This document shows positions 7,331-33,802 of a DNA stretch of 64,000 nt, in pieces. A model generated the notes under the pieces. It ran no database searches. It saw only the letters and a program-made list of their open reading frames with translations, and was not told the DNA's origin. The stretch is from the NCBI GenBank assembly GCA_024698555.1, contig JAILRI010000219.1, positions 18,442 through 82,441 of the forward strand, written 5' to 3'. Source of the stretch: Lachnospiraceae bacterium (GTDB taxonomy: Bacteria; Bacillota; Clostridia; Lachnospirales; Lachnospiraceae). Made by a program: the position numbers and the translations under genes. Each line of letters begins with the position of its first letter. Within the stretch, counting starts at the first letter, position 1.

Positions 7331-7359
7331 TTGATATTTATCTGTTTTTGTGCTATAAT
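7331..7359 (+). promoter_or_regulatory. sigma-70/SigA-type promoter of the signalling operon
   Basis: TTGATA (7331-7336), 17-nt spacer, TATAAT (7354-7359), about 90 nt upstream of the ATG at 7449. Confidence 0.55.
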
Positions 7360-7448
7360 ACAGAGGGATTTTGTGAGTTTGAGACAGGCCTGTTCGGGCG
7401 ATATGGATTCAAGAATGACGATCCGTTTTTTACAGAGGAGAATAACTG

Positions 7449-9971
7449 ATGGGTGGTATCATCGCGGCATCTGATATTGTCGGTGGGATATTTATGATTA
7501 TGATCCTGGCGGCGCTGTTGCAGCAGAAACAGACGAACAGCAGCAGAAGCAGGTTTTATATACTGCTGCTGATTTCGGATATAACCGGACTCTTTTTAGA
7601 CGCAGCCAGCTACTGTCTTGAATGCTTCGCCTGCGACAGCACGCTGCTTATAGTCACTAATTCACTCACATTTATCCTGACAAACGTCTGCATCGTGTTT
7701 TTTGCGTTTTATGTAATCTCATTTATACGTGAGAAATGGGATGTGTCATATCTGAATGCTTATATTGTGATAGGTATCGCAGTCATCAATACGCTTCTGG
7801 TCATTATCGGAGTATATACCGGTAATCTGTTTACGGTCAAAGACGGAAGATATATCTACGGAGAGTGGCGAAACTATATCAGCGTTATACCTGTTCTGAT
7901 CATTGTATGGTTCTTCATGTTTACGTTCAGCGGGATCAAAAAACTTGGAAAAAAGCAGGCGTTGCTGCTCAGTACATTTTTGATATTTCCGTTAGTGATG
8001 GCCGGATTATTGTTGTTTTTACCGCATTGCGATTTTTCATACCTCGCGATTGCCTTGTCATGTTTTCTTATTTTCATTTTCATACAGAACGAAGTGCTTA
8101 ACGAAGCCCGGAGCAGGCAGCATGTCTCTGACGAAGCTGACAAGGTTAAGACGCTGTTCCTTTCGAGCATGTCGCATGAGATCAGAACCCCTATAAACAC
8201 CGTGCTCGGAATGGACGAGATGATCTTAAGGGAGAGCAATGACGCTGCAGTCAGGGAATACGCCATGGATATCTGGGAAGCTTCACAGACACTGCTTTCC
8301 ATCATAAACGATATACTTGATCTGGGTAAGATAAAATCCGGCAGGATGGAAATAGTGCCTGAAGCATATGACGTATCCAGCATGATATTCGATATATCAA
8401 ATATGATCAGGTTCTGGGCCGAAGAAAAAGGCCTGTATGTGGATGTCAGCGTATCTGATGATATTCCTTCGAGATTGCTTGGAGATGACGTCAGGATCAG
8501 ACAGATCCTGGTGAATCTGCTCACCAACGCGATAAAATATACCCCGAAGGGAACAGTATGGCTCAGGATAGTTTTGAAAACCGACAGTAAGGATATTACA
8601 GCTGCCGGTGATGAGGTGATCCTTCATTTTGAAGTTGAAGACACCGGAATCGGAATGAAGACTGAAGATGTAAACAGGCTGTTTTCAGAGTACCGGAAGA
8701 TCGACGATGACCACGATATCAACTCGGAGAGTACCGGACTGGGCATGCCGATCACTTTGAAGCTCCTTAATATGATGGGATCGGAGCTTGAGGTGAAAAG
8801 TGAATACGGACGCGGCTCGGTCTTTGGCTTTGATCTGAAACAGAAGGTTATCGACAAGGCGCCCGTAGGTGACTTCGAAAAGAACATCAAGAATCTGATG
8901 AATACCAAATCAGGATATACCGGATCATTCGAGGCTCCTGATGCGCATATACTGGTCGTTGATGACAATGCGATGAACCGCAAGGTGTTTGTTTCACTTA
9001 TTAAATCTACCCGGATCATGATAACAGAAGCAGCGGACGGGCAGGAAGCAGTTGATCTGGCGTCAAAGCAGCATTATGACATTATTTTTATGGATCATAT
9101 GATGCCCGGGATGGATGGAGTTGAAGCCATGAAAAGGATAAAGGCTGAGGCTGACGGTCCATGTGTGGATACTCCGATCATTGTGCTTACAGCCAATGCT
9201 GTGGCAGGGGTAAAGGAAAAATACGATGAGTACGGTTTTGACGGGTATATGTCCAAGCCTGTCGCTGCCGACACTCTTGAAAAGATCATAAAGGACAGGC
9301 TCCCGGCTGATATGATACGGCCTGTCACGGATCGGAAAGCGGCACCTGAACCCGCTGCCAGCAAAAGTGCTGATAACGAGGAGTTCCCCGTTATCTTCGG
9401 CATCGACTGGAAGATGGCTATGATGCGGCTGCAGAGCAGGAAAATTCTTGATATGGTGTTAAAGGAATTTGAAATGACCATCGGGCAGCAGGCGGACAAG
9501 CTGCAGGGCTATCGCAAAGATTTCCCTGAAGCGCTGGAGAGCTACAAGATACTGGTACACGGCTTAAAAAGCGCATCTGCTTCGGTTGGCATCATTCCGC
9601 TGGCAGGAACGGCTGCTTTGCTGGAAAAAGCTGCCGCCAATAATGATGTGGACACGATAGACCGTCTTCATGAGGTATTTATCAAAGAGTGCAGAAATTA
9701 TAAGCTCAGGCTCCGCGAATATCTGCATTTGGAAGATGAGGAAGAGGACAAGGATGAGATCAACAATGTGATCTTAAGAGCACTCTTAAGGATGCTCGCA
9801 TCGGCCATGGCAGATATGGATATAGAAAAAGCAGACGGAGTGATAGAAAAGATGTCTTCATATAAGCTTCCGGATAAGGTTTCAGCAGAATTCGACAATT
9901 TGAAGGCAGCCGTTTCGCAGCTGGATCAGGATATGGTTACGGAAATACTGTCAAGAATTGAAAAATCCTGA
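7449..9971 (+). CDS. Hybrid sensor histidine kinase: 7TM sensor, HisKA, HATPase, REC, Hpt
   Basis: 840 aa. About seven N-terminal TM helices. H-box SHEIRTPINT. N/G boxes NLLTNAIKYT, DTGIGM, GTGLGM. Receiver ILVVDDN...FMDHMMPGMDG...LTANA...SKPV. Hpt LVHGLKSASASVG. RBS GAGGAG. Confidence 0.9.
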   Translation: MGGIIAASDIVGGIFMIMILAALLQQKQTNSSRSRFYILLLISDITGLFLDAASYCLECFACDSTLLIVTNSLTFILTNVCIVFFAFYVISFIREKWDVSYLNAYIVIGIAVINTLLVIIGVYTGNLFTVKDGRYIYGEWRNYISVIPVLIIVWFFMFTFSGIKKLGKKQALLLSTFLIFPLVMAGLLLFLPHCDFSYLAIALSCFLIFIFIQNEVLNEARSRQHVSDEADKVKTLFLSSMSHEIRTPINTVLGMDEMILRESNDAAVREYAMDIWEASQTLLSIINDILDLGKIKSGRMEIVPEAYDVSSMIFDISNMIRFWAEEKGLYVDVSVSDDIPSRLLGDDVRIRQILVNLLTNAIKYTPKGTVWLRIVLKTDSKDITAAGDEVILHFEVEDTGIGMKTEDVNRLFSEYRKIDDDHDINSESTGLGMPITLKLLNMMGSELEVKSEYGRGSVFGFDLKQKVIDKAPVGDFEKNIKNLMNTKSGYTGSFEAPDAHILVVDDNAMNRKVFVSLIKSTRIMITEAADGQEAVDLASKQHYDIIFMDHMMPGMDGVEAMKRIKAEADGPCVDTPIIVLTANAVAGVKEKYDEYGFDGYMSKPVAADTLEKIIKDRLPADMIRPVTDRKAAPEPAASKSADNEEFPVIFGIDWKMAMMRLQSRKILDMVLKEFEMTIGQQADKLQGYRKDFPEALESYKILVHGLKSASASVGIIPLAGTAALLEKAAANNDVDTIDRLHEVFIKECRNYKLRLREYLHLEDEEEDKDEINNVILRALLRMLASAMADMDIEKADGVIEKMSSYKLPDKVSAEFDNLKAAVSQLDQDMVTEILSRIEKS

Positions 9972-10002
9972 AAACTGTGTTTCAATATCATGATAAATAT
10001 TT

Positions 10003-12237
10003 ATGAAGGTCAACCGGATGAAAAAGATTAAAGCATGTGTAAACAGGATCAGGGATTATATTTATGATTCTTCCATCAACATAAAGGAGAGGACCTTTAT
10101 ACTGTTCTCGATCGTTGTATTGGTGGCTTTGTTTGCTGCCATACCTGCCGGTCTTATTATGAGGGAGCCGATCATGGCCACGATATTTACAGTGGTCGGA
10201 ACTGCCTTCTTTTCGGCATATGTATATCTGGCTTTCAAAAAAGACCATATATCTCGTGCCAGGATCGTCATATCGATCATTCTGATCTTTGTTTTTCTCC
10301 CCGCGATGTTCTTTACCAACGGAGGAGTTGAAGGTGGCACGCCTATATGGCTCCTTCTTGGAACGATCTATATTTCGCTCATACTCGAAGGCAGGCTTAA
10401 GGTCATCATGCTGATCAGTGAAGCTGTGGTGCTGATCGCATGCTGGATCATCGGGTACTGCTTTCCTGAATTGATCACCCAATATTCAAGGGAAGGTAAC
10501 TATTTTGATACGATCGCGGGATTGTTTATTGTCAGCGGCATAATCTTTGGCATCATTTCCTTCCAGAACAGGCTGTACAGACGGGAAGAGGAGCAGAAGA
10601 ATGTTCAGAGACTGTTCGCGCAGACGGCTACCGCGCTGGTAAATGCTATCGATGCCAAAGATAAATACACACACGGACATTCGGCCAGAGTCGCGGAATA
10701 CTCCCGGAAAATAGCAGAGTGGGCAGCCAAGACACCTTCCGAATGTGAGGAGATCTATTACGTCGCGCTTCTCCATGATGTAGGGAAGATAGGTATTCCG
10801 GAAGCGATCATCAACAAAGAGGGCAAACTTACCGATGAAGAGTTCTCGATCATAAAGCAGCATTCTTTTCTGGGTGCACAGATACTTCAGAGTATTACCG
10901 AGTATCCTTATCTGAGCATCGGAGCGCATTTTCATCATGAGCGGTATGACGGCAGAGGTTATCCCAACAGGCTTAAAGGTACAGATATTCCCGAGATAGC
11001 CAGAATTATATCCGTGGCAGACGCTTATGATGCCATGACCTCGAAGAGGAGCTACCGCGATCCCATTCCGCAGGAGAAGGTACGCGAACAGTTCATAGAG
11101 GGCGCAGGAACGCAGTTTGATCCCGAATTTGCCAATATCATGCTGCATCTGATAGATCTTGATACCGAATATGAAATGAAAGAACGGGGCGAAAGCAGTG
11201 AATTTGCGGGACAGGAGGAGCTGATCATCGGAGAGCACAGAGACGGTGTATCGGAAGGGATCCTGCTTACTCCCAATATGACTGTTGTCAGATTGAAGGT
11301 CGGAGTTGATAAAAATGCCGCCGGGCATACTCCAAAGCCTTCAATTATCATGTTTGATTCTCTTGACGGCCGCTTCCATGATGATGAGAAGGAAATAAAG
11401 GATCTTCTCTATGATGAGTATGCGGAAATATGGCTTGAGGGGCGGGTAACTAATTCCTCAGTCAGAAAGACAGAGATCAAGACCTTCGGAAAGACTGCCT
11501 CAGCCATGGCGCCGGGTGAATACCGTATAGAAGCTGTCAAACGCAGGGATCACGCTCTTGTCAGGATAGAAAGCCGTGACAAGACCGTAGAGATAATCAT
11601 GGCGCTTCCCGACAGCAGCAGGTATGTATATATGGGACTTACGGGCGAACATTGCCGCTTCAGCGATCTAAAGATCGAAAAGTCGGAAGATGCCGTTCCG
11701 GAGGACTATATACCCAGGATCGCAAAGGAGATCAGTTATATTGACGCTCCGGAAGGCGACATTCCCAATGTTCAGGTAGACGGATACCGTACAGCTTCTA
11801 CAAAGGGCATACCGATCACGGACGGGATGAAGATCACTTTCCATACCTTGAGCCTTCCTACGGCAAGGCTTGTCTGGCATTGCCCTTCATATGTTGTATT
11901 TTCGGCCGATGACGGTATTGTAAGTGGTGAGGACTACAAAGAATTCTCTCTGGTGAGACTTGACGGCGAGACCTGGGAGGGTGAGAACCTTGCCGAAAAT
12001 GAGCTTATTGTTGACAGACAGCATTTCGACGGGTGGGACGCATGGAAAAAACTGAATCTGCAGGGTTATGATGTTTCCGTATCCTTCAGCAGGGACGGAA
12101 ACCGTATCGTTTCAACCACCGACAACGGCGGCGTTTCCATCAGGAATATTACCACTGTCAAGGTTGATACAGGGGAGATCTATGTGGCACTTTCAGGAGA
12201 TCAGTGCGCTCTGACGAATATCAGGATCAGTAAATGA
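10003..12237 (+). CDS. Membrane HD-GYP phosphodiesterase with an uncharacterised duplicated C-terminal module
   Basis: 744 aa with a multi-TM N-terminus. HD-GYP motifs HGHSARVAEYS, LLHDVGKIGIP, HHERYDGRGYP. The C-terminal ~330 aa consists of two ~143-aa repeats. Confidence 0.85.
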   Translation: MKVNRMKKIKACVNRIRDYIYDSSINIKERTFILFSIVVLVALFAAIPAGLIMREPIMATIFTVVGTAFFSAYVYLAFKKDHISRARIVISIILIFVFLPAMFFTNGGVEGGTPIWLLLGTIYISLILEGRLKVIMLISEAVVLIACWIIGYCFPELITQYSREGNYFDTIAGLFIVSGIIFGIISFQNRLYRREEEQKNVQRLFAQTATALVNAIDAKDKYTHGHSARVAEYSRKIAEWAAKTPSECEEIYYVALLHDVGKIGIPEAIINKEGKLTDEEFSIIKQHSFLGAQILQSITEYPYLSIGAHFHHERYDGRGYPNRLKGTDIPEIARIISVADAYDAMTSKRSYRDPIPQEKVREQFIEGAGTQFDPEFANIMLHLIDLDTEYEMKERGESSEFAGQEELIIGEHRDGVSEGILLTPNMTVVRLKVGVDKNAAGHTPKPSIIMFDSLDGRFHDDEKEIKDLLYDEYAEIWLEGRVTNSSVRKTEIKTFGKTASAMAPGEYRIEAVKRRDHALVRIESRDKTVEIIMALPDSSRYVYMGLTGEHCRFSDLKIEKSEDAVPEDYIPRIAKEISYIDAPEGDIPNVQVDGYRTASTKGIPITDGMKITFHTLSLPTARLVWHCPSYVVFSADDGIVSGEDYKEFSLVRLDGETWEGENLAENELIVDRQHFDGWDAWKKLNLQGYDVSVSFSRDGNRIVSTTDNGGVSIRNITTVKVDTGEIYVALSGDQCALTNIRISK

Positions 12238-12263
12238 GTTGATTAAGGAGATTTTCGATTGGT

Positions 12264-13028
12264 ATGTCGATAAGAAGAATGATCTTTACAGCTGAAAAAG
12301 AGTCTTTTATCGTCCGCGTTCTTGTTAAAAAAATGCAGGATGCGGGTGTGGACTGTATTTATGCCTCGTTGCGGGTCGACGATCTCAACTCATCATGGAT
12401 GGGGGAAGATCAGCTGATCGCTCTTTTTCTGGAAGATGACTTGATCCCGAGGGAAGATGCTCTTCATTTTATTATCGATAAACTGGAGGAAAGAGGCGGA
12501 CACCTGATCCTTGTCGGAGCTCGTGAGGATTTAAAGATCATGTGTACCCATGTGCCGACAGATCTGATATATAAGAGTTTTGCCAGACCGGTGGATAATG
12601 CCATGTTCATCAGTGAAGTGGTTGAGTATTACAAAAAACTTGATTCGGGAGAACTGAAGAAGAGCATATTGATAGTTGATGATGATTCCCAGTATCTGAC
12701 ATTGATCAGACAGTGGCTCGTGGATTCATACAAGGTGTATCTGGCATCATCCGGACTCCAGGCCATAAAGCTGCTCGGAAAAACAAAAGTCGATCTGATA
12801 CTGCTTGACCACGAGATGCCGGTCACCAGCGGTCCGCAGGTCCTTGAAATGCTGCGCAGCGAGGAAGAAACGAAATCCATACCGGTCATGTTTCTCACCG
12901 GGAAGAGCGACAAAGAAAGTGTGATGGCAGTAGTTTCACTTCACCCCGAAGGCTACCTTCTCAAGAGTATTAAGAAAGAGAAACTGCTTGAGGAACTGAA
13001 AAATTATTTTGCGCTCCATAATGAGTGA
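12264..13028 (+). CDS. Stand-alone response regulator: N-terminal pseudo-receiver-like region plus canonical REC, no output domain
   Basis: 254 aa. The C-terminal half has ILIVDDD, LILLDHEMP (phospho-acceptor Asp), MFLTGKSD and YLLKS. The N-terminal ~125 aa has an alternating beta/alpha pattern but no acidic pocket. Confidence 0.8.
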   Translation: MSIRRMIFTAEKESFIVRVLVKKMQDAGVDCIYASLRVDDLNSSWMGEDQLIALFLEDDLIPREDALHFIIDKLEERGGHLILVGAREDLKIMCTHVPTDLIYKSFARPVDNAMFISEVVEYYKKLDSGELKKSILIVDDDSQYLTLIRQWLVDSYKVYLASSGLQAIKLLGKTKVDLILLDHEMPVTSGPQVLEMLRSEEETKSIPVMFLTGKSDKESVMAVVSLHPEGYLLKSIKKEKLLEELKNYFALHNE

Positions 13029-13046
13029 TAACAGGAGATCGCTTAT

Positions 13047-15248
13047 ATGAACCGAAGTTTTAAACAGAACAAAAACAGTATATTCCACCCTGCGGTGTTA
13101 TTGCTTATGGTGGTTTCTGCTCTGCTGAATATTCTGCTGTCCATGATAGTGAGGACAACAGAATTGCCTTTCTATATCGATACTGTCGGAACTATAGTCG
13201 CTACCGCCTTAGGCGGTGCCGCACCGGGCATCGTGACCGCATTTGCCACCAATACGGTCAACTTTTTTTTAGACGGCGAGTCCATATTCTATGCGCCGTT
13301 AAATATGCTGATAGCAATTCTTTCGGTAGCGTATTTCGGGGAATACTCGGCTTACAGAAAAAAACTTAAAGAACAGAATAAGAACTATAAAAAGGATTAC
13401 GGGCAGAAATCACTGCTTGATCTGATCCTTTTTATTCTGGCACTTGCCTTGATCGGCGGAGGGATTGGAGCTCAGATAACCTGGTATTTGTATGCCTCAC
13501 CGTCAGAAACTCCTATGATCGTAAATATCAGCAACTGGCTGTCCGACAGTTTTGGGATCGGTATCTGGGGCTGCCATATGATATCAACATATATTACCGA
13601 TGTGATGGATAAAGCCATATCGGTATGTCTGGCACTTCTTATCATTAAACTGGTTCCCGACAGTTTAAGGGAAAAAATCCGGTTTACCTCGTGGAGGCAG
13701 AAACCGATATCCTTTGAGGAACAAAAAGCCGCAAAAGCGAAATTTAAAGGACGTGTCTCTATAGGGACCAGGATCAATATCATACTCATTCTTTCCACTC
13801 TGCTCATGATGTTCACCGCTCTTGTTTTCAGCGCCATGACCTTCCGCCAGAATACGATCGAATCATTATCGAAATCTGCGACCCAGATAGCCTATCTTGC
13901 CTCGAAAGAGATCGATCCGAAGATGGTAGATGTGTTTCTCGAAAAGGGAAATAAAGTGGCAGAATACGCCACAGTCAAGGCAAGACTCAGGGTTATCAAA
14001 AACAGTTCACCCGATATCGCTTTTCTTTATGTATACAGGATAGAAGAAGACGGATGCCATGTGGTCTTTGACCTGGATACTGTTCTGAGTGACTCCACCT
14101 TTGTGGAGGGGGATCCGCCCGGAAGAGTGGTTCCGTTCGAAGAAGCATATCTCCCTTATATTGATGATCTGCTTGCGGGAAAGATGCTTCCGGCCGTACA
14201 GATGAAGGACAGGTACGGGAGTTTTCTTGCCTCGTACTATCCCGTTTACGACAGAGAAGGCAACTGCGTCTGCTATGCTGTATCAAATGTAGAATACAGA
14301 TTGGCCGGGAATCTGATGTACAGGTTCATCGGAAGACTTTTACTGCTATTTACCGGATTCTTTATCCTGATAGTCGCGATCAGCCTGATAACGACCAGAT
14401 ACCGTATAGTGATGCCTATCATGAGTATGACGGTTCATGCCAATGAAATGACTGATGAGAAGGGTGGAGCTGATGAGGAAAGTCTTAAAAAGATAGAGGA
14501 ACTTGATATCCGAACCGGAGATGAGATTGAAGGGCTGTACAGGGCTCTTGAAAAACTGACAGGTGACACGGTTTACCAGCTGAGTGATAACAGGAACAAG
14601 GCTGAGGCGATATCGAAGATGCAGAGTGCCCTGATCGTAACCATGGCAGATATGGTTGAAAGCAGGGATTCGGATACTGGAGCCCATGTTTTAAAGACAG
14701 CTGCTTATGTCAGGATCATACTTCAGGGACTTAAACGGAACGGTTATTATTCCGAGAAGATAACCGACAAGTATTTAAGAGATGTTGAGATGAGCGCGCC
14801 TCTTCACGATGTCGGCAAGATAAACATACCGGACGCGATCCTTAATAAACCCGGGAAGCTGACAAAGGAAGAATTTGAGATCATGAAGACCCATACGACA
14901 GCCGGAAGGTCACTGCTTGAAAACGCGATCAGCTCCATGGAAGGTGATAACTACCTTAAGGAGGCCAGAAACATGGCCGCCTATCATCATGAGAGATGGG
15001 ATGGCAAAGGATATCCAGAAGGACTGCATGGCGAGGTCATTCCTCTATCCGCGAGAGTCATGGCGGTTGCGGATGTTTTTGACGCTCTTTCCTCTCCCAG
15101 GGTTTATAAACCCGCGTTTCCTTTTGATGAGGCAGTCAAAATGATAGAAGAAGGCTCCGGAACACAGTTTGATCCCAAGTGCGTGGAGGTATTTCTCGAA
15201 TCCCTTACGGAAGTTAAGAAGATACTTAAGAGGTATCAGGAAGCATGA
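13047..15248 (+). CDS. Membrane HD-GYP phosphodiesterase with an extracytoplasmic Cache-like sensor region
   Basis: 733 aa with several N-terminal TM helices. A ~170-aa loop lies between two TM helices and looks Cache-like by position and composition. Then GAHVLKTAAYV, PLHDVGKINIP, HHERWDGKGYP. RBS AGGAG. Confidence 0.85.
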   Translation: MNRSFKQNKNSIFHPAVLLLMVVSALLNILLSMIVRTTELPFYIDTVGTIVATALGGAAPGIVTAFATNTVNFFLDGESIFYAPLNMLIAILSVAYFGEYSAYRKKLKEQNKNYKKDYGQKSLLDLILFILALALIGGGIGAQITWYLYASPSETPMIVNISNWLSDSFGIGIWGCHMISTYITDVMDKAISVCLALLIIKLVPDSLREKIRFTSWRQKPISFEEQKAAKAKFKGRVSIGTRINIILILSTLLMMFTALVFSAMTFRQNTIESLSKSATQIAYLASKEIDPKMVDVFLEKGNKVAEYATVKARLRVIKNSSPDIAFLYVYRIEEDGCHVVFDLDTVLSDSTFVEGDPPGRVVPFEEAYLPYIDDLLAGKMLPAVQMKDRYGSFLASYYPVYDREGNCVCYAVSNVEYRLAGNLMYRFIGRLLLLFTGFFILIVAISLITTRYRIVMPIMSMTVHANEMTDEKGGADEESLKKIEELDIRTGDEIEGLYRALEKLTGDTVYQLSDNRNKAEAISKMQSALIVTMADMVESRDSDTGAHVLKTAAYVRIILQGLKRNGYYSEKITDKYLRDVEMSAPLHDVGKINIPDAILNKPGKLTKEEFEIMKTHTTAGRSLLENAISSMEGDNYLKEARNMAAYHHERWDGKGYPEGLHGEVIPLSARVMAVADVFDALSSPRVYKPAFPFDEAVKMIEEGSGTQFDPKCVEVFLESLTEVKKILKRYQEA

Positions 15249-18200
15249 TGAAAAGAAACCCTATTAGGATTGGTATTGCTGTTCTTTTTCTTGCTGTGAT
15301 AACGGCAGGAATTATTTGGAATGTACGGACATTTGGGGCGGAGAAAGAGACGTATACCGTCAATGCCAACGGATATCCCGTAGGTGGCGGATATGCCGCC
15401 AGTAACCAGATACCCGGGGCATATTTTCTGCCTGTATTATATGATGCCTCAAATGGGCTTCCGACTTCGGAAGCGAACTGCATACTTGCCGCAAGTGACG
15501 GATATATCTGGATAGGCGGATACAGCGGTATTGTCAAGTATGACGGGCTGAATTTCGAAAAAATGTCTGTAACTGACGGTCTTACCAGCGGAAGAGATTT
15601 GTTTGAGGACCGGGACGGCCGTATTTGGGTTGCGACCAATGATCACGGTGTAGTAGTGATAGACGGCGCAGATCGTGTTAAGTTTACTAAAGACAATGGG
15701 ATGAATTCCAACTCTATACGTACTTTTGCCCAGGATGCGGACGGCAACGTCTTCATAGGTTCGACAGCAGGCGTTTCGTATGTAGACGTATCTATGAAAC
15801 TGCATAATATTGACGATAACAGATTAAATAATGCGAGGATCCTGCGGCTGGTATCGGACGAAGAAGGAACCGTTTACGGACATACAGGGGACGGAAACGT
15901 ATTTACCGTTTCGACGGACGGAGTCGGTGCGTTTTACAGGAGCAGCGACTTGGGAATGAAAAAAGTAACAACCATACTTCCGGATCCGGAACATGCGGGA
16001 ATGCTGTTCTTCGGAACTATAGGCCACAGTGTCTACTATGGTTCTTTATCGGAGAACGCCGCTAATATGAAAAGGATAGATACGGCTCCCGCTCAAAACA
16101 TACACTGGATGCATTATGCCTGCGGACGTTTATGGGTTTCTTCGGTAAGCGTTGCGGGATATGTTGATGAATACGACAGGTTCATCCCTTTTGAGAGTTT
16201 ACCTGTAAAAGACTCTTTTGAAATGATGACTTCGGACTATCAGGGCAATATGTGGTTTGCTTCTTCCAGGTATGGCGTCATGAAGCTGGCTGCGAACAAT
16301 TTTCTGGATATTACCGGAGCTGCAGGGTTAGATCCTGAAGTGATCAATGCTACCGCATTCAGGGAGGGGAATCTCTATATTGGTACTGATTCGGGCTTAA
16401 GGATCATTGATGAGGATTATCGCATCAGAGAAAATTATGTAACCGAATATTTCGGTGAGTCCAGGATCCGCTGCATCATGAACGACAGCAGGGGTAACAC
16501 TTGGTTCTCCACATTTACCGGAGGTCTTGGCCTGGTGTGTCTGACGGTTAACGGCAAACTGATAAATTATACATATAACAACGGCCTTCCTTCCAATGAG
16601 ATCAGGTGTACCTGCGAGATGAAGGATGGCACTTTGGTGGTCGGAACCAACGCCGGGATCGCGCTGCTGAAGAACGGACGCGTGACTGAAACCTACGGTT
16701 TCTCCAGTGGTATGAAAAACACCGTTGTTCTTACCGTGTGTGAGGGGGAAGGCGGAGAGATCCTCGCAGGCACAGACGGAGACGGAATATATGGGATCAA
16801 AAATGGTATTCTGCGCCATATCGGGATAGAGGACGGACTTGACAGTGATGTGATCATGCGCCTGAAAAAAGATGATTATAACGGCGTTGTATGGGTTATA
16901 ACATCAAGTATGGTGGAATACATAAGAAACGGTGTCGTGACCAAAGTAACCGCATTCCCTTATAACAATAATTTTGATGTGATACCCGCTGATAACGGAA
17001 AGCTCTGGTTTCTGTCATCACGCGGGATATACGTGATGAGCGCGGCGGATGTGTTAAACGATCAAATAACGGAATACATTCTGTTTGAAAAAGTCAACGG
17101 GCTTACAAGCATGCCTGTATCACATTGCTATAACGGAACGGATGACAGCGGATATCTCTATATTGCCGGACAGACAGGGGTTTCCGTGATCAATACAAAT
17201 AATCTGTATGATTTTTCGAGCAGTATCATCACCGGCGTGAGGAGCATTTATTATGACGGAGTTGAAATACTGCCGGATGAAAGCGGCGTATACAATCTGC
17301 CATCCGCATACGGACGTATGCAGATCAATCCCGCGATCCTTGATTATACACTGTCAAATCCGCTTGTCAGGGTCTGCCTTGAGGGAATGAATGATGAGGG
17401 CATTACAGCTCATCAGAGCAGTCTGGCGTCTCTTGAATATACCGGTCTGAAATATGGGGATTATTCCCTTCATATCCGGGTCCTTGACGAAAACAACGGA
17501 AGAATACTCTCTGACAGCCTATATCATATAAGAAAAGCTCCCGCTTTCTTCGAAAGGATGTCTGTCAGGATCATTTTGATGATCCTTGCTCTTGCCGCTA
17601 TAGGTATAGCGGTATGGCGTGTTCTTACCGGTACTGTCATCAGAAAACAGTATCTCCAGATACGGGAAGCAAGAGATGAAGCTGACAGGGCAAATGCTGC
17701 CAAATCCAGATTCCTTGCGAATATGAGCCATGAGATCCGTACTCCGATCAATACGATCATGGGTATGGATGAAATGATACTGCGTGAGAATACCCAAAAC
17801 GTGTCTCGTGAATATTCAAGTGCGGTCACCGGTTACGCCCGCAATATCAAGTACGCTTCCGAATCATTACTGGGTCTGATCAATGACCTTCTGGACATTT
17901 CCAAGATAGAGTCGGGCAGCATGCATCTGGTAGAACAGGAATATGATACCGCAGAACTGCTTCGAGGTGTCATTTTCATGATACGGGACCGGGCGGAAGA
18001 GAAGAAGCTGTATTTTGACCTCGATATTGATGAAACGCTTCCTAAACGGCTCTACGGTGATGGGGGCAAGGTTAAGCAGATAATCCTGAATATTCTGACT
18101 AACGCAGTAAAATACACGGATGAAGGTGGTTTTACCCTTAGCGTGAAGGTAATTGACAGGAATGAAACGAGCGCAGCCTTAAGGATCTCAGTCAGGGACA

Positions 18201-19501
18201 CCGGCATAGGGATAAAGCCGGAAGAGATCGATAAGCTGTTTTCCGCTTATGCGAGGCTGGACGAGGTCAGAAATTCAAATATAGAGGGAACCGGTCTGGG
18301 ACTAGACATTTCAAAGCAGTTCACCGATATGATGGGCGGCAGACTTTGGTGTGAGAGTGTGTACGGAGAGGGCAGCGAGTTTCTTCTTGAGATCAGACAG
18401 AAGATTGCTGATGCTGCGAAAGTCGGAGTGTTCCACGAAAAGGTGGACGATTCGGCTGCAGGGAACTATAAACCGCAGTTTATAGCGCCTGATGCCGACA
18501 TACTCGTCGTAGATGATAACCCGATGAACCTGAATGTTATCAAGGGGCTGTTGGGACCGACGAAGATATTTGTAACTACTGCCTCAAGCGGTGAAGATTG
18601 TCTGGAAAAGATCGACGCTAACGACTTTAATGTAGTGCTGCTCGATCATATGATGCCCGGAATGGACGGGATAGAAACGTTGGAGAAGATCAGAAAAGAT
18701 CACCCGGATCTGCCGGTATACGCGCTTACGGCAAATGCTACCGCGGGCGGAGAAGCATTTTATCTGTCCAAAGGCTTCAACGGATATCTTACGAAGCCTA
18801 TTGATATCGTTGCGGTAGAGCACGCGATCATGAGGCATTTGCCCGAGCATATCATGCTAAAGCCTTCTGATGAAGACGCAGTACAAAATGACACGATCCT
18901 TGACGAGGATCTGCGCTGGCTGGAAAACGCCGAGGGGATAAGTGTCCCTGAGGGAATAGCGAACTGCGGCGGAGCTTCCCAGTTTGTTTCGCAGCTGAAG
19001 TATTTTGCAGACAATATTGATGACAATTCCGCTCTCATTGAGAAAGCCTATGAGGATGACGATATAAAGCTGGCTACTGTAAAGATCCATGCGTTGAAAA
19101 CTTCTTCAAGGATTATCGGAGCCCTAAAACTTGCGGATGAGTGCCGGGAGCTTGAGGAGGCCGGAAACAGTAAGGATACAGACTATATCAATACCCGCGC
19201 ATCGGCAGTGATTGAGCATTACAGGGAGTTTAAAACGATTCTGGGACGCTTAAAGAATGATAAGAAAGATATGGACGAAAGCGGGGACAAGCCGGAAATA
19301 ACAGCAGGGGAACTGGATGAGGCGTACCGGACCTTGAAGGACTGTATCATCCAGATGGATTATGACGCAGTTGAGACTGTTCTAACACAGCTTAAGAAGT
19401 ACAGGCTTCCCGGGAAGGATGAAGATACGCTAAAGGCTCTGGAAAAAGCCTTTGGTCAGGTTAACTGGGAAGCAATGGAAGAGGTGATCGGGAATGTATG
19501 A
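15245..19501 (+). CDS. Hybrid sensor histidine kinase: beta-propeller (Reg_prop repeats) plus Y_Y_Y sensor, TM, HisKA, HATPase, REC, Hpt
   Basis: 1418 aa. Start overlaps the upstream stop (ATGA). Repeated motifs of the type GLPSNEIRCTCEMKDGTLVVGTNAGIALL. Y_Y_Y-like LKYGDYSLHIRVLD. TM ILMILALAAIGIAVW. SHEIRTPINT, GTGLGL. REC LLDHMMPGMDG. Hpt KIHALKTSSRIIG. Confidence 0.9.
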   Translation: MMKRNPIRIGIAVLFLAVITAGIIWNVRTFGAEKETYTVNANGYPVGGGYAASNQIPGAYFLPVLYDASNGLPTSEANCILAASDGYIWIGGYSGIVKYDGLNFEKMSVTDGLTSGRDLFEDRDGRIWVATNDHGVVVIDGADRVKFTKDNGMNSNSIRTFAQDADGNVFIGSTAGVSYVDVSMKLHNIDDNRLNNARILRLVSDEEGTVYGHTGDGNVFTVSTDGVGAFYRSSDLGMKKVTTILPDPEHAGMLFFGTIGHSVYYGSLSENAANMKRIDTAPAQNIHWMHYACGRLWVSSVSVAGYVDEYDRFIPFESLPVKDSFEMMTSDYQGNMWFASSRYGVMKLAANNFLDITGAAGLDPEVINATAFREGNLYIGTDSGLRIIDEDYRIRENYVTEYFGESRIRCIMNDSRGNTWFSTFTGGLGLVCLTVNGKLINYTYNNGLPSNEIRCTCEMKDGTLVVGTNAGIALLKNGRVTETYGFSSGMKNTVVLTVCEGEGGEILAGTDGDGIYGIKNGILRHIGIEDGLDSDVIMRLKKDDYNGVVWVITSSMVEYIRNGVVTKVTAFPYNNNFDVIPADNGKLWFLSSRGIYVMSAADVLNDQITEYILFEKVNGLTSMPVSHCYNGTDDSGYLYIAGQTGVSVINTNNLYDFSSSIITGVRSIYYDGVEILPDESGVYNLPSAYGRMQINPAILDYTLSNPLVRVCLEGMNDEGITAHQSSLASLEYTGLKYGDYSLHIRVLDENNGRILSDSLYHIRKAPAFFERMSVRIILMILALAAIGIAVWRVLTGTVIRKQYLQIREARDEADRANAAKSRFLANMSHEIRTPINTIMGMDEMILRENTQNVSREYSSAVTGYARNIKYASESLLGLINDLLDISKIESGSMHLVEQEYDTAELLRGVIFMIRDRAEEKKLYFDLDIDETLPKRLYGDGGKVKQIILNILTNAVKYTDEGGFTLSVKVIDRNETSAALRISVRDTGIGIKPEEIDKLFSAYARLDEVRNSNIEGTGLGLDISKQFTDMMGGRLWCESVYGEGSEFLLEIRQKIADAAKVGVFHEKVDDSAAGNYKPQFIAPDADILVVDDNPMNLNVIKGLLGPTKIFVTTASSGEDCLEKIDANDFNVVLLDHMMPGMDGIETLEKIRKDHPDLPVYALTANATAGGEAFYLSKGFNGYLTKPIDIVAVEHAIMRHLPEHIMLKPSDEDAVQNDTILDEDLRWLENAEGISVPEGIANCGGASQFVSQLKYFADNIDDNSALIEKAYEDDDIKLATVKIHALKTSSRIIGALKLADECRELEEAGNSKDTDYINTRASAVIEHYREFKTILGRLKNDKKDMDESGDKPEITAGELDEAYRTLKDCIIQMDYDAVETVLTQLKKYRLPGKDEDTLKALEKAFGQVNWEAMEEVIGNV

Positions 19502-21899
19502 TTTGATAAAGACTTATCAGATGGATATCATGCTCGGACTGTCAAGCATCTGTGTCGCTGTCGGTTTTTTTGCCCTGATCACGAAGTCCCTGCCCAGAAA
19601 AAGAAAGCTCGCCATGATCGACCTGGAGTTCTCGGCAAGCATACTGCTGTTCTCAGACAGGATAGCGTATATTTTCCACGGTGATCCGACTGTAATGGGT
19701 TACTGGATGGTCAGGATATCGAATTTTCTGGTGTTTTTTATGACGATTTCCGTCATGCATGCTTTCAATCTGTATATTTGCGACCTGTGCAGTAATGAGA
19801 TCGGTCTGAAGACTGTGCCGTTTAGGCTGAGGCTCGTAGAGCTCGTGGCCGGAGCAGGGTGGATACTGGTCATTATTTCACAGTTCACGGGTTTATATTA
19901 CTATTTTGATGAAAGCAACGCTTATCAAAGGGGCCCCGGATTTCTGATATGCTATATCATTCCGTTTGTCGGGACATTTATACAGTTGTCCGTGATCATA
20001 CAGTATTTTAAGCGTTTGAGCCTGTATATCAGCATACCCATGCTTCTTTTTACGATCCTGCCGATCATTGCCTCCATATTTCAGGCGCTTCTTTACGGCG
20101 TTTCACTTACCAACATGTCCATCGTCGGATTGGGTATAGTCCTGTATATTTTCGCCATTATGGAAATGAATGATATGGTCGAGAAGATGCGGCGCAGCCA
20201 GTTGGATGAAGCTAACAGGAAAAGCCTGCATATAAGGCAGTCCTTCGAGCAGGTGGTAAAAGCGGTGGTCAAGGCTCTCGACTCACGTGACCGCTATACC
20301 CGTGGCCACTCTCTCAGGGTTGCGGAGTATTCCAAAGAGATCGCCCAGAGAATGGAACTCGATGAAAAGGAATGCTTCCGTGTATACTATTCCGCGGCGA
20401 TGCACGACATAGGAAAGATTGAGATTCCAGACAGGATACTTGCAAAACCGGGTCGTCTGACAGATATAGAAGAGGAAATATTGAAAAAACATCCGGCTAT
20501 CGGAGGAGCGATACTTGCCGAAGTGGAAAATGTTCCTTATCTGGCGACAGCCGCAAGATATCATCATGAAAGATATGACGGAAAAGGTTATCCGGAAGGA
20601 ACAGCAGGCGAAGATATCCCTCTGATAGGACGTATAGTAGCTGTAGCAAACGCTTACGATGAAATGACCTCTTTCAAATTTTCACATACTCCTTTTGCCC
20701 AGGGCAGGGTGCGTGAAACACTGGTGAATGGAGCCGGACACGAGTTTGATCCCGCGATAGTGAAGATCATGGTGGAAATGATAGATCATGACACCGACTA
20801 CATGATGAGAGAGTCGGAAGACGAGGAGATAGATGACGCGGACAGAAACGATATTACCATAGTAAACAGGATGCATTTTGAAAACTATAAGGAGCTGGTT
20901 TCAGACGGCATACGGGTACAGAAGGAGTTCTTAAAGGTCAGATTTGAAACCCGTCCGGATACCGGATATGACAGGAAAAACTCGATCCCGGCTATCGTAT
21001 TGTTTGATTCGTTTGACAGATGCGTCCACAGAAATGAAAGAAATATCAAGAACCTGCATTACTTTGAATACGGTGAGATCTGGATGGACGGGCATACGGT
21101 CACCACATCGGCAAGAGATATAAAGGCTTCCGTAACACAAAAGGTTTCTGCTGAAAATATTGATGAAAATGAATGGATCGCCTACGAGATCGAGGCTGTG
21201 AATATCAAGGATCATGTCAGGATCAAGATAAACAGCAAATATATGTTTGCGGATATTACCGTAGCGCTTCCCGACTCGACCAGATATGTCTTTTTTGGTC
21301 TGACCGGAGAGCACTGCACGATCAAGGACATTTCCGTTAAGGAGATCGCTCTGGGCGCAGGTGATGACAATATTCCCCGGATAGTGCCTGAAGTCAGTTA
21401 TTTTACCCGTAAGGACGGGGATATCCCCAATGTCGAGGTAAATGGATACAGAGAAGAAGCAACTCTTGGGATTCCGGTTGATGACGGTATGAGACTGTTT
21501 TTCAGGACTCAGAGCCTGCCGGTGGCCAGCCTGGTACAGCACTGCGCTTATATACTGCTGTACTCTTCCGATGACGGAACCGTAAACGGGAAAAATTATA
21601 CGGAATACGTATGTATCCGTACGGACGGTGATGAGGCTACCATAGACGGGAAGGCAAAGAATAAATTCAATATACATAAGGCCGGGGATTTTTCAGGCTG
21701 GGACGCCTGGAAAGAGAAAAACAAAAAGGGGCTTGACTACGAGATCGTATTTAAACGCAGAAAAAATAATATTACATTCAAAACCGAAAATGCAGGGATT
21801 TCTATCGAATGCGCAACGACAGTACCTAAAGGCGCTGACAATGTTTACGTGGCGCTTACCGGCAACCTGTGTACTCTGATGGATATCAGGGTTAGGTAG
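19494..21899 (+). CDS. 7TM HD-GYP phosphodiesterase with the same duplicated C-terminal module as 10003..12237
   Basis: 801 aa. Start overlaps the upstream gene by 8 nt. RGHSLRVAEYS, AMHDIGKIEIP, HHERYDGKGYP. The C-terminal repeats end in GLTGEHCTIKDISV and ALTGNLCTLMDIRV. Confidence 0.85.
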   Translation: MYDLIKTYQMDIMLGLSSICVAVGFFALITKSLPRKRKLAMIDLEFSASILLFSDRIAYIFHGDPTVMGYWMVRISNFLVFFMTISVMHAFNLYICDLCSNEIGLKTVPFRLRLVELVAGAGWILVIISQFTGLYYYFDESNAYQRGPGFLICYIIPFVGTFIQLSVIIQYFKRLSLYISIPMLLFTILPIIASIFQALLYGVSLTNMSIVGLGIVLYIFAIMEMNDMVEKMRRSQLDEANRKSLHIRQSFEQVVKAVVKALDSRDRYTRGHSLRVAEYSKEIAQRMELDEKECFRVYYSAAMHDIGKIEIPDRILAKPGRLTDIEEEILKKHPAIGGAILAEVENVPYLATAARYHHERYDGKGYPEGTAGEDIPLIGRIVAVANAYDEMTSFKFSHTPFAQGRVRETLVNGAGHEFDPAIVKIMVEMIDHDTDYMMRESEDEEIDDADRNDITIVNRMHFENYKELVSDGIRVQKEFLKVRFETRPDTGYDRKNSIPAIVLFDSFDRCVHRNERNIKNLHYFEYGEIWMDGHTVTTSARDIKASVTQKVSAENIDENEWIAYEIEAVNIKDHVRIKINSKYMFADITVALPDSTRYVFFGLTGEHCTIKDISVKEIALGAGDDNIPRIVPEVSYFTRKDGDIPNVEVNGYREEATLGIPVDDGMRLFFRTQSLPVASLVQHCAYILLYSSDDGTVNGKNYTEYVCIRTDGDEATIDGKAKNKFNIHKAGDFSGWDAWKEKNKKGLDYEIVFKRRKNNITFKTENAGISIECATTVPKGADNVYVALTGNLCTLMDIRVR

Positions 21900-21909
21900 G
21901 AGATGATTA

Positions 21910-23850
21910 ATGGCAATTAAACGCATAACTGATAAATATCTGGCAGATTTCTTCGGAATTGATGACAGTGAACAGGGACAGGCTGAACTGGCCGATATCA
22001 GAAAGAAGCTGGTCAGACAGCAGTACGAGAACGGAACTGATGTCTGTGTTATTGACGAAGAACCTGACGGGATGTTTTTCCTGGAAACAGGGACGGCTAT
22101 AGTACTGGGGCGTGAGGGAGAACAGCTCAATATCCTGCACGAAGGACAGTATTTCGGTGAATATGGCGTCCTTTCCGGCAACAAGAGGCTGTCAACCGTG
22201 CGTTCGTTGGGAAGGACCATAGTCTTCAAGCTGGAAAGCGATGACATGATGGAAATACTTTCGCGTCATCCCGAAATCTACGGAAAACTGATGAAAAGGG
22301 TTTATGGGCAGGTGTCGCGTAAACATTCCCAGATATTGGAACTGTCAGGTTTACGTAAGGGAATACTCCAGCACCCAAGAAACGAAACGCCGATGTCAAA
22401 GGGACAGATGGCGGTTCAGTACGGGATCCTGGCGCTTGTTTACCTTGCTGCATACTTTATTCCGCTTCCGGGCGGGAGTTTTCCTGTATTTTTATTTCCG
22501 CTGGGTCTGATGCTGGTTTATGTCGTTCTTACCAAAAGAACGCTGGAATCTCTGGTGGCTTCGATCATACTGGCGGCTGTACTGCTGTACAAAGAGGGGG
22601 TATCAGCCGGCTTCGTGGACGCGGTAATGGACACCATGGAGCTGGAGGATAATGTTTTTACCGTACTGGTGATGGCACTTATGGGCGGAATGATCCAGCT
22701 GATCACTGCGTCCGGCGCTATTACGGCCTTTAAGAAAATGGTCGATAAAAAGATACACGGTCAAAATGAAACCATGCTCGCGGCCTGCGGTATTATGACC
22801 GCCACATGCATTGATGACGGATTAAATATGTCCTGCGCGGCTCTGGCCACCAACTCTTCCGCGAAGGAGCATATGATACCGAGGGAGAAGCTGGCGCTTA
22901 TATACAGCCTTCTTCCGACGGCTCTGTGCTCATTTATGCCTTTGTCGCTGTGGGGGATCTTTGTTATAGGTACGCTGACTGCAACCGTGAGAGCTCAGGA
23001 CATCCAGCTTTTTTGCAGGTCGATACCCTTCAATTTTTTCTCTATCCTGACTGTGGCAGCGATACTGATGCTTTGTTTTGGCAGACTCCCTCTGAGCAGG
23101 AAGCTTAAACACGCGGATGCCAGGGTAGAAAGCGGAGGGACCTTATGGCCTGCCGGATCCGAGAAATACTTAAACGTACTTGAACCTGAGATGTGGGGAA
23201 AAATATACAATATCATGCTGCCGATACTGGTACTGGCGATATCCTCGCTGGCGGTACGTTCGATCCTGGCCGGCAGATTTATTGTAGACAGTGCCTGCGG
23301 GCTGGTTGTGACACTGCTGTTTATGTTTTTGCTTTACTGCGCCCAGGGGCTTATGACCCCGGAACAGTTTATGGAGCATCTGGTCACAGGCATTGCCAAC
23401 ACCACGCTGCCTATAATAATGTACCTGCTTACCATCTGCTTTGCAAATCTTCTGGACGCGCTCTCTCTTGAAAATTATTTTCTTGGTATCGTGGAACATG
23501 TACGCGGATTTGGATTTATGCTTCCGGCATTCATTTTCATCACATCCATGCTGCTTACGGTCGTTCTCGGTTCTTCGTGGTCAATGTATGCTATCGTGTT
23601 TCCCATAGCCATACATATGGCAGGCGGTCTGGGGATCGATCTGGCTTTGTGCGTGGGCGCGGTATGCGGCGCGGGCATAGCCGGTGAATACAACTGTATG
23701 TTTACGGTAAACGCGCTGGATGTGGGTACTGTTATAGGATGTGATCCGGGAGCGGTACGCTCGGTAAGGATGACCTACAGTATCGCGCTTACTCTGATCA
23801 CTGCGTTGTTGTATCTGGCAGCGGGTGTGCTGGTTACGGTGCGCATGTGA
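21910..23850 (+). CDS. Cyclic-nucleotide-binding domain fused to an NhaC-family (Na+/H+ antiporter-like) membrane transporter
   Basis: 646 aa. The N-terminal ~140 aa resemble a CAP-effector domain (FFLETGTAIVL...GQYFGEYGVLSGNKRLSTVRS). About 11-12 TM helices follow, with an NhaC-like GSSWSMYAIVFPIA motif. RBS AGGAG. Confidence 0.8.
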   Translation: MAIKRITDKYLADFFGIDDSEQGQAELADIRKKLVRQQYENGTDVCVIDEEPDGMFFLETGTAIVLGREGEQLNILHEGQYFGEYGVLSGNKRLSTVRSLGRTIVFKLESDDMMEILSRHPEIYGKLMKRVYGQVSRKHSQILELSGLRKGILQHPRNETPMSKGQMAVQYGILALVYLAAYFIPLPGGSFPVFLFPLGLMLVYVVLTKRTLESLVASIILAAVLLYKEGVSAGFVDAVMDTMELEDNVFTVLVMALMGGMIQLITASGAITAFKKMVDKKIHGQNETMLAACGIMTATCIDDGLNMSCAALATNSSAKEHMIPREKLALIYSLLPTALCSFMPLSLWGIFVIGTLTATVRAQDIQLFCRSIPFNFFSILTVAAILMLCFGRLPLSRKLKHADARVESGGTLWPAGSEKYLNVLEPEMWGKIYNIMLPILVLAISSLAVRSILAGRFIVDSACGLVVTLLFMFLLYCAQGLMTPEQFMEHLVTGIANTTLPIIMYLLTICFANLLDALSLENYFLGIVEHVRGFGFMLPAFIFITSMLLTVVLGSSWSMYAIVFPIAIHMAGGLGIDLALCVGAVCGAGIAGEYNCMFTVNALDVGTVIGCDPGAVRSVRMTYSIALTLITALLYLAAGVLVTVRM

Positions 23851-23947
23851 TAAAAACAGCACTTTACATCTTGGATGATTTGTGTTATAACTACATCTGT
23901 TGTGCATATAACGCACAGAAATAATATGAAAGGCAGATTATTTGATC

Positions 23948-25046: not shown

Positions 25047-25078
25047 ATAACCCGGTACAGATAAAAGTACCGGGTTAT
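25047..25078. terminator. Bidirectional intrinsic terminator between convergent genes
   Basis: Perfect 12-bp stem ATAACCCGGTAC / GTACCGGGTTAT with an 8-nt loop and AT-rich flanks. Confidence 0.6.
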
Positions 25079-33626: not shown

Positions 33627-33802
33627 TCGTGACCGCGTTATGACAATTTACATTTTTTTAACACTTATTTGATATCTGAATATATTGACATCAAGCGGAA
33701 TAAAGCATACTATATAAAGTGTATGATTTTGTGCATGTCTTGTCAGTTGTTGGACCGGCAAGATCAGGCGCGCATTTTAATGTTTCCGGAAGGAGAGAAA
33801 TT

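Follow-up and report, generated by a model that had tools for sequence, protein, structure and literature searches.

The window analysed here is a 64,000-nucleotide stretch of a rumen Lachnospiraceae metagenome-assembled genome (MAG; Lachnospiraceae bacterium, GenBank assembly GCA_024698555.1, contig JAILRI010000219.1, positions 18,442 to 82,441 of the forward strand), and all coordinates given below count from its first letter. Seven open reading frames (ORFs), all on the + strand and called g1 to g7 here, span 7449-23850. An initial annotation, made from the letters alone, had described them as a single sensory operon, and its seven co-oriented ORFs with junctions of 31, 26, 18, -4, -8 and 10 nt agree exactly with our coordinates. 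Judged from gene order in related loci, the array is a composite around a conserved Lachnospiraceae cassette, g3-g4-g5-g6, with g1 and g2 added upstream and g7 added downstream. The seven genes are as follows.

7449..9971, + strand: g1, hybrid histidine kinase with about seven transmembrane (TM) segments; HisKA-HATPase 8148-8843, receiver (REC) 8949-9290, histidine phosphotransfer (Hpt) domain 9444-9671.
10003..12237, + strand: g2, multi-TM HD-GYP protein with a C-terminal module; HD-GYP 10636-11127, module 11200-12234.
12264..13028, + strand: g3, tandem receiver with no output domain; predicted pseudo-receiver 12264-12647, REC 12666-12998.
13047..15248, + strand: g4, membrane HD-GYP protein; energy-coupling factor S-component (ECF-S)-like domain 13101-13667, Cache-like domain 13845-14315, HD-GYP 14643-15179.
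15245..19501, + strand: g5, 1418-aa hybrid kinase; Reg_prop/Y_Y_Y 15338-17539, HisKA-HATPase 17699-18400, REC 18500-18826, Hpt 18998-19177.
19494..21899, + strand: g6, HD-GYP protein with about seven TM segments and a C-terminal module; HD-GYP 20262-20759, module 20808-21896.
21910..23850, + strand: g7, cyclic-nucleotide-binding (CNB) domain joined to an NhaC-family transporter; CNB 22018-22269, Pfam Na_H_antiporter 22939-23829.

Domains were called with Pfam profiles at curated cut-offs, with NCBIfam as a second library. For all seven genes the Pfam search agrees with the architectures first proposed, and none of the seven proteins reaches an NCBIfam equivalog cut-off, the TorS, BarA and ArcB matches of g1 and g5 included. 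Every phospho-acceptor residue of g1, g3 and g5 is intact, and both g1 and g5 carry the motifs of a hybrid kinase with an Hpt domain (SHEIRTP; DD...D...T...K; VHGLKS / IHALKT). Inspection of g5 reveals a signal/TM segment, an extracytoplasmic beta-propeller sensor, a TM segment and then the kinase parts, with the Hpt acceptor at His1282. The sensor scores 87 bits against Reg_prop and 21.9 bits against Y_Y_Y, just under the cut-off, and matches the PDB sequences 4a2l, 3v9f and 3ott, which are Bacteroides hybrid two-component system (HTCS) sensors, with E-values from 4e-20 to 2.5e-14. No helix-turn-helix match was found in g5, whose C-terminus is the Hpt domain. In g1 the Hpt acceptor is His704 in VHGLKSASASVG; scanned by itself, the domain reaches 27.9 bits and clears the gathering score.

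The receiver protein g3 carries the REC residues DD139/140, D182, T212 and K234. Its predicted structure (predicted local distance difference test score, pLDDT, 87) contains two (beta-alpha)5 domains, for which the best full-length structural matches are the REC-REC stem of PleD, 3luf/3mf4 and ShkA; residues 17-249 also align to the REC-REC region of CbrR in NCBIfam. The N-terminal domain is without the canonical acidic pocket, has Arg-Pro in place of the Lys-Pro of receivers and finds no Pfam match at E up to 10. The pairing of a pseudo-receiver with a REC, as originally described, is backed by the predicted fold, on which the call rests because the hhalign probability between the N-terminal domain and REC is just 11%.

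The N-terminal membrane domain of g4 (residues 19-207) is ECF-S-component-like (NCBIfam CD3073 family, E 9.6e-11, below cut-off), and Pfam ECF_trnsprt is matched in 4 of 15 g4 orthologues. This domain had been missed by the initial annotation, whose description of g4 as Cache-like holds weakly, with its extracytoplasmic domain of about 160 aa matched by dCache_1 in one of the 15 orthologues (E 1.6e-4). If it serves as the N-terminal part of the sensor, ahead of the extracytoplasmic domain, a module of vitamin-transporter type would here be put to an uncommon purpose in a phosphodiesterase. Pfam searches at E up to 10 gave nothing significant for the periplasmic domain of g4 or for the membrane domains of g1 and g6. 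A candidate scheme in which the same seven-TM sensor serves opposite outputs was rejected, as the membrane domains of g1, g2 and g6 share no similarity.

To place the array among its relatives, the C-terminal module shared by g2 and g6 was used for a metagenome scan that returned at least 462 loci, and neighbourhoods were examined in 80 of them. Module genes fall into two classes. Those of the g2 type stand alone, with no kinase, g3 or g4 neighbour at any of 43 loci, while those of the g6 type lie invariably directly downstream of g5, or of g5-g3. The order g4-g5-(g3)-g6 is found in 19/19 metagenome loci with at least 6.7 kb of upstream sequence, and homologues of g3 and g6 led to five further cassettes: L081, L163, L164 (the cultured Butyrivibrio sp. 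WCD2001; AUJZ01000004.1, about 261.6-282.4 kb), L165/166 and L167. That is to say, the cassette is present in every informative related locus (about 24), so the link first drawn between a phosphorelay and HD-GYP enzymes is borne out by the clustering of g4, g5, g3 and g6. The claim of a seven-gene unit is not: just g3-g4-g5-g6 recur, and g1, g2 and g7 are not constant partners. Likewise, of the two markers proposed for tracing the neighbourhood, the module recurs with g4-g5-(g3) in its g6-type form, and neither its g2-type form nor g7 does so. L163 reads g3-g4-g5-g6 followed by mraZ, with g7 absent. The junctions that flank the g5 kinase, between the two HD-GYP genes, are overlapping or 3-40 nt long.

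The receiver gene is the part of this arrangement that changes position. Of 29 cassette loci, 13 have g3 between g5 and g6, two have it ahead of g4 (the window's arrangement) and two have it behind g6. It is confined to cassettes whose g5 carries an Hpt domain (17/25) and occurs in none of the four whose g5 is without one; a Fisher test of this co-occurrence gives approximately 0.02 on data that are non-independent. For five g3 homologues the locus was looked up (the window's own, P0184, P0257, P0222 and P0271), and each lies inside a cassette. In L081, L085 and L100, g4-g5-g6 is retained although g3 and Hpt are both missing. An apparent in-frame g3-g6 fusion in L098/L099 was rejected, as a TAA stop separates the genes.

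Accessory hybrid kinases are frequent on the flanks of the cassette, as in L164, L099 and L167, with SBP_bac_3 (in WCD2001), HisKA_7TM, dCache_1 and Fe-hydrogenase-like sensors, and g1 fits such a role. The membrane domain of g1 matches no Pfam family and was seen at none of the 80 module loci, and g1 is no conserved partner of the cassette. The g2 protein falls in the stand-alone clade of the module family and is best described as a paralogous stand-alone sensor phosphodiesterase. As a separate observation, L167 encodes at 15084-18233, just downstream of its cassette, a HisKA-HATPase-REC-Hpt kinase whose N-terminal part matches the Fe-hydrogenase large subunit and 4Fe-4S domains; redox state or H2 may be what this kinase senses.

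We compared the HD-GYP domains residue by residue with PmGH, whose eight metal ligands are E185, H189, H221, D222, H250, H276, H277 and D305 and whose substrate contacts are R314/K317 (PMC4159591, the source of all residue roles used here). Each of g2, g4 and g6 scores 111-117 bits against HD_5 (cut-off 27.2) and has the HHE...GYP motif. All seven shared metal ligands and the R..Y(K/R) motif are present in g2 and g4, and g4 has all eight ligands, with the E185 equivalent inside the D-T-G triplet of the predicted trinuclear subgroup. The corresponding triplets are Y-T-H in g2 and Y-T-R in g6, with Tyr at the E185 position, as in the Y/F subgroup predicted to be binuclear. The g6 domain aligns to PmGH, V-cGAP3 and PA4781 and keeps H..HD..H..HHE..GYP, yet it has Asn at the position of D305 and Lys at that of R314, and K317 is lost. 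The statement that all three HD-GYP domains keep their catalytic residues therefore stands for g2 and g4 and fails for g6. Because D305A in PmGH lowered activity without abolishing it (PMC4159591), g6 may be weak rather than dead.

The same pattern extends to the relatives. Catalytic residues of g4-type proteins are essentially invariant (19/19 cassette orthologues), and g2-type HD-GYP domains in related loci are about 96% intact. In contrast, more than half of 27 g6-type domains have substitutions at ligand positions while keeping the fold and usually GYP, and two are without the HHE-GYP segment. This contrast in catalytic conservation suggests, at the level of sequence, that g4 would be the working enzyme and that g6 tends toward a modulator or receptor role. 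By eye, no clear pattern links the presence of g3 to catalytic degeneracy of g6. L103 and L112 are variant cassettes: their g5 homologues, of 653-663 aa, have no beta-propeller, and their g6 homologues lack the whole HHE-GYP segment.

As noted from the outset, no HD-GYP protein of the array carries its own receiver: g2, g4 and g6 have no Response_reg match and are without the N-terminal REC fusion that characterises the RpfG family, and the receiver is a separate protein, g3. The absence of a cyclase gene from the operon is likewise confirmed by domain content. A receiver-less HD-GYP protein is by itself not unusual: Galperin and Chou (bioRxiv 10.1101/2021.11.05.467447) have catalogued such proteins with membrane sensors, and they are common.

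The C-terminal module, whose presence on both g2 and g6 had been correctly recognised, measures 345-363 aa (40% identity, E 8e-90). The two proteins are paralogues, 40% identical over HD-GYP and module. An AlphaFold2 model of the module (pLDDT 91) contains two beta-sandwiches, and hhalign detects homology between them (probability 98.6%, E 1e-15); on this model the module is an internally duplicated tandem beta-sandwich. It has no match in Pfam (E up to 10), NCBIfam or PDB sequences, where matches of the profile are confined to its HD-GYP columns. Foldseek's best matches are the galectin-8 tandem carbohydrate-recognition domains, laminin G-like domains and legume lectins, with E-values of 1e-6 to 1e-2, and it finds a loose likeness to the GH32 C-domain as well; template-modelling scores (TM-scores) are low, at 0.2-0.26 when the whole module is compared and about 0.43 against single-domain targets. 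The module is expected to lie in the cytoplasm, because the cytoplasmic enzyme domain precedes it with no TM segment between.

A phmmer search of 1.84 billion representative proteins found approximately 300 module relatives, 94 of them at E<1e-30, and in every architecture checked the module is C-terminal to HD-GYP. Since HD-GYP is usually the C-terminal domain of its protein, an HD-GYP followed by the module is an unusual association and apparently an undescribed one. The N-terminal sensors of module proteins include seven-TM domains, Reg_prop/Y_Y_Y beta-propellers and LacI-type sugar-binding periplasmic binding proteins (PBPs). Reg_prop-HD-GYP-module and sugar-binding PBP-HD-GYP-module fusions each occur as one polypeptide, as does Reg_prop/Y_Y_Y-HD-GYP (L099 15092-18184 and L108 4706-7840), and Reg_prop-HD-GYP fusions without the module also adjoin module genes. 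These one-polypeptide fusions tie glycan-type sensors to HD-GYP output. Individual proteins with a beta-propeller or LacI-type PBP fused to HD-GYP, with or without the module, include P0310, P0329, P0339 and P0375. Several long proteins (P0437, of 1658 aa and with seven matched stretches, P0393, P0415, P0419 and P0433) carry multiple copies of a module-related single beta-sandwich and have no Pfam family or a weak DUF5766 match; the sandwich unit thus also serves as a repeat outside HD-GYP proteins. Exact-sequence look-up of P0170 and of g7 returned no record.

The seventh gene behaves differently from the cassette. The g7 CNB domain scores 48.6 bits against cNMP_binding (cut-off 27.5), aligns to the domains of the cyclic-nucleotide-gated (CNG) channel CNGA1, MloK1, SthK and PKA-R, and has a canonical phosphate-binding cassette (FGE...R.ST), of which F82, G83, E84, R93, S95 and T96 do not vary among 15 homologues. 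Residues 344-640 cover positions 6-303 of the 303-position Na_H_antiporter profile (PF03553; 49.4 bits, cut-off 23). Because the pocket is canonical for cyclic nucleoside monophosphates (cNMPs) and aligns to cyclic AMP (cAMP) and cyclic GMP (cGMP) receptors, g7 is expected to bind cAMP or cGMP, and it is unlikely to read an HD-GYP substrate. Characterised HD-GYP substrates are c-di-GMP (cyclic di-GMP) and 3'3'-cGAMP (cyclic GMP-AMP).

An alignment-based search with g7 in one genome per GTDB species gave 75 loci, nearly all in rumen Lachnospiraceae/Oscillospiraceae MAGs, plus Lachnospiraceae bacterium G11. A tblastn search with all window proteins at these 75 loci found essentially no HD-GYP gene beside g7. 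No constant neighbour was found: the immediate upstream genes represent 67 Pfam families, of which the commonest, GGDEF, accounts for 5/57 as a raw count. In its two closest relatives (L076 and L078, 72% and 69% identity) g7 is separate and transcribed divergently from a GGDEF-EAL gene; PilZ is encoded approximately 4 kb away, and there may be a weak link of the CNB-NhaC transporter to c-di-GMP genes. No g7 follows g6 in L084, L086 or L163, the closest three cassette loci for which downstream sequence exists. The canonical cNMP pocket and the lack of conserved linkage together remove the proposed step in which g7 reads a pool set by the HD-GYP enzymes. Sequence and context would instead make g7 a cAMP/cGMP-gated NhaC-type transporter, co-oriented here by accident of gene order and perhaps co-transcribed.

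Transcription signals around the array comprise the following features, with one neighbouring gene.

7331..7359, + strand: predicted promoter-like site TTGATA-17-TATAAT with TG upstream, 11/12 match.
23942..25012, + strand: next gene after g7, encoding a lipoprotein with a trigger-factor-like peptidyl-prolyl isomerase (PPIase); no terminator between g7 and this gene.
25047..25078, bidirectional: first strong terminator-like hairpin downstream of the array, 12 pairs, 6 G-C.

The single near-consensus promoter reported earlier is indeed the top + strand match in the region and lies in the 129-nt gap between an ABC (ATP-binding cassette) transporter gene, the second of two that precede it, and g1; the region as a whole has 31 promoter-like sites, the number expected by chance (31.7 in shuffled sequence). 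In agreement with the initial annotation, a terminator scan inside the array found none that is convincing, the + strand matches being weak and all within genes, and after g7 there is none before 25047. A clear Shine-Dalgarno sequence precedes six of the seven genes. The exception is g2, whose first ATG (10003) has none; Met6, whose ATG at 10018 has a GAAGG motif in front of it, is the likelier start and may widen the g1-g2 gap to 46 nt. Co-transcription of all seven genes is plausible because of their spacing, the one promoter-like site, the Shine-Dalgarno sequences and the lack of a terminator. The unit could extend to 25012, and the last gene has its own promoter-like TTTACA-17-TATAAC at approximately 23864-23892. 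Base composition is even across the array region, and an Rfam scan of the whole window found no riboswitch and no other RNA family.

Elsewhere in the window, the 23942-25012 product scores 217 bits against the NCBIfam trigger-factor model (tig; cut-off 180), begins with the lipoprotein signal peptide MKKIMAAALVLCMCMVLAGCSS and is missing most of the N-domain that binds the ribosome; it resembles a PPIase of trigger-factor type that is exported and anchored by a lipid. Other c-di-GMP-related genes encode an HDOD-domain protein (33719-35032, +) and a GGDEF diguanylate cyclase (46431-48137, -), and neither adjoins the array. ORFs of 253, 433 and 375 aa at 147-908 (+), 37081-38382 (+) and 38921-40048 (-) have no Pfam match at E<1e-5.

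The cassette and g7 can be compared with several characterised systems. As in Xanthomonas RpfC/RpfG, an Hpt-bearing hybrid kinase is encoded beside HD-GYP phosphodiesterase genes, and relay control is the likely logic. Unlike in RpfG, the receiver is a polypeptide of its own, g3, apart from the HD-GYP domains, and the HD-GYP proteins are two membrane sensors, one invariant and one often degenerate, with a 360-aa module on g6; unlike RpfC, g5 senses through an HTCS-type beta-propeller rather than a diffusible signal factor (DSF) sensor. HTCS proteins carry an AraC-type DNA-binding C-terminus and regulate polysaccharide-utilisation loci. The order of a Reg_prop and Y_Y_Y sensor followed by HisKA-HATPase-REC is shared between g5 and the Bacteroides HTCS proteins (4a2l/4a2m, 3v9f, 3ott), whereas g5 ends in Hpt, its gene lies between phosphodiesterase genes and it belongs to a Gram-positive Lachnospiraceae.

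From end to end, the fold predicted for g3 can be superposed on the REC-REC stems of PleD, 3luf/3mf4 and ShkA, and its sequence aligns to that region of CbrR, but g3 is without the GGDEF or kinase domain of PleD and ShkA, and its order of pseudo-receiver and then phosphorylatable REC is the reverse of that in PleD. MloK1, SthK and CNG channels share with g7 a canonical phosphate-binding cassette; unlike in these channels, the g7 CNB domain forms the N-terminal part of a fusion with an NhaC-family secondary transporter. A further parallel is the Shewanella H-NOX/HnoK network, in which, by the account of Galperin and Chou, one kinase governs an active phosphodiesterase (HnoB) and a degenerate HD-GYP modulator (HnoD). 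There each target includes a REC and the active one is of the EAL class, whereas the cassette has a separate tandem receiver and both partners are membrane HD-GYP proteins.

The reading we favour is a glycan-sensing relay in which g5 acts through its Hpt domain and g3 to control the HD-GYP proteins g4 and g6, in effect RpfG split into separate polypeptides, to which we assign a probability of about 0.5. In its favour speak the conserved linkage of the cassette, the co-occurrence of g3 with Hpt, the intact phospho-acceptors, the predicted tandem-receiver fold of g3, the homology of the g5 sensor to HTCS sensors, the one-polypeptide fusions, the flanking accessory kinases and the contrast in catalytic conservation between g4 and g6. 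In the proposed scheme, the HTCS-type beta-propeller/Y_Y_Y sensor of g5 would detect an extracellular glycan or oligosaccharide, upon which g5 would autophosphorylate. The phosphoryl group would then pass within g5 from His to Asp of the internal REC and on to His1282 of the Hpt domain, and from there to Asp182 of g3, with accessory kinases such as g1 feeding the same receiver. The domain content and residues for these three steps are observed. In a fourth step, the least supported, phospho-g3 would contact the membrane HD-GYP proteins g4 and g6. Here g4 would be a constitutively competent c-di-GMP phosphodiesterase (trinuclear-type D-T-G), and g6 (Y-type, often degenerate, D305N here) a modulator or c-di-GMP-binding partner, whose tandem beta-sandwich would offer one more surface for binding a ligand or partner. 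The overall result would be a change in probably local c-di-GMP upon plant-polymer cues. There is precedent for a degenerate HD-GYP protein modulating an active phosphodiesterase under kinase control in HnoD, and both HnoD and the catalytically weak RpfG are known modulator- or receptor-type HD-GYP proteins (Galperin and Chou).

Several points weigh against this relay. We infer the cassette's ligand, the role of the module and the targets of g3, including its contact with g4 and g6; the ligand of the g5 beta-propeller is assigned by analogy with distant homologues, and the module resembles lectin-like folds just weakly (TM-score 0.2-0.45). Eight Hpt-bearing cassettes have no g3 in the available sequence, and just some of these end early. 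HD-GYP proteins with their own sensor domains may also need no receiver. This last point opens onto a rival account, in which g2, g4 and g6 are each run by the sensor domains they carry, as in the many other receiver-less membrane HD-GYP proteins, and the cluster persists through a shared local c-di-GMP pool or a membrane complex. The g5-g3 relay would then target motility or another enzyme, or g3 would be a phosphate sink; single-domain receivers are established as sinks or diffusible regulators in two-component signalling. The three loci that keep g4-g5-g6 without g3 and Hpt favour this account as well. It sits less easily with a receiver gene that shifts position and yet stays inside the cluster (5/5 homologues), that co-varies with Hpt, and whose kinase is held strictly between two HD-GYP genes by overlapping or very short junctions. 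We consider such independent sensors rather unlikely.

Information could also flow in reverse, such that c-di-GMP gates the phosphorelay: the pseudo-receiver of g3 (ShkA-like) or the HD-GYP and sandwich of g6 would bind c-di-GMP and gate phosphotransfer or the kinase, with g4 setting the local concentration. The full-length match of g3 to the ShkA pseudo-receiver-REC and to PleD, together with the erosion of g6-type catalytic sites that keep GYP motif and fold, speaks for this direction. Set against it, no c-di-GMP-binding motif was identified in g3, its structural matches are generic for tandem receivers, and no result separates reverse flow from the g5-to-g3 relay; we regard it as improbable. 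Least credible is the scheme of the initial annotation, a hub of five sensors and three HD-GYP enzymes that set a cyclic (di)nucleotide pool read by the CNB domain of g7. The co-oriented genes with gaps of 10-31 nt or overlaps, the one good promoter and the lack of a terminator before or after g7 speak for such a hub, and GGDEF genes are the commonest upstream neighbours of g7 homologues and adjoin its two closest relatives, with PilZ nearby. In related genomes, however, g7 has essentially no HD-GYP gene next to it and is never found in cassette-carrying loci, and its pocket is that of a cAMP/cGMP receptor and not of a protein that binds the characterised HD-GYP substrates. To our knowledge, HD-GYP enzymes do not hydrolyse cAMP or cGMP. 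Overall, the hub is very unlikely.

Within the paper library searched, literature searches on the g3-g6 cassette and on the module found nothing, and those on HD-GYP with Butyrivibrio and on the CNB-NhaC fusion found nothing relevant. The individual domain classes are all known except the module, and the cassette combines a two-component phosphorelay coupled to c-di-GMP turnover with an undescribed domain family. The module is a new HD-GYP-associated domain and an exception to the C-terminal placement of HD-GYP, and the active/degenerate pair g4/g6 is a natural case for how inactive HD-GYP domains signal. A bolder and more speculative version of the g5-to-g3 relay, which we put forward tentatively as an unlikely idea, is an undescribed 'split RpfG' device of plant-fibre-degrading Lachnospiraceae, in which a glycan relay would use a free tandem receiver and an obligatorily HD-GYP-linked tandem beta-sandwich, a new cytoplasmic module for binding a ligand or partner, to switch the active/degenerate HD-GYP pair. 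If true, c-di-GMP and the availability of carbohydrate would each gate the other, locally and at the membrane.

Hardly any work has addressed c-di-GMP signalling in the anaerobic Firmicutes of gut and rumen. Among clostridial phosphodiesterases, the HD-GYP class dominates (Galperin and Chou). The cassette, which joins an HTCS-type sensor to HD-GYP proteins, recurs across many rumen Lachnospiraceae, including culturable Butyrivibrio, and offers a testable route from plant-polymer sensing to attachment or biofilm decisions in fibre degraders.

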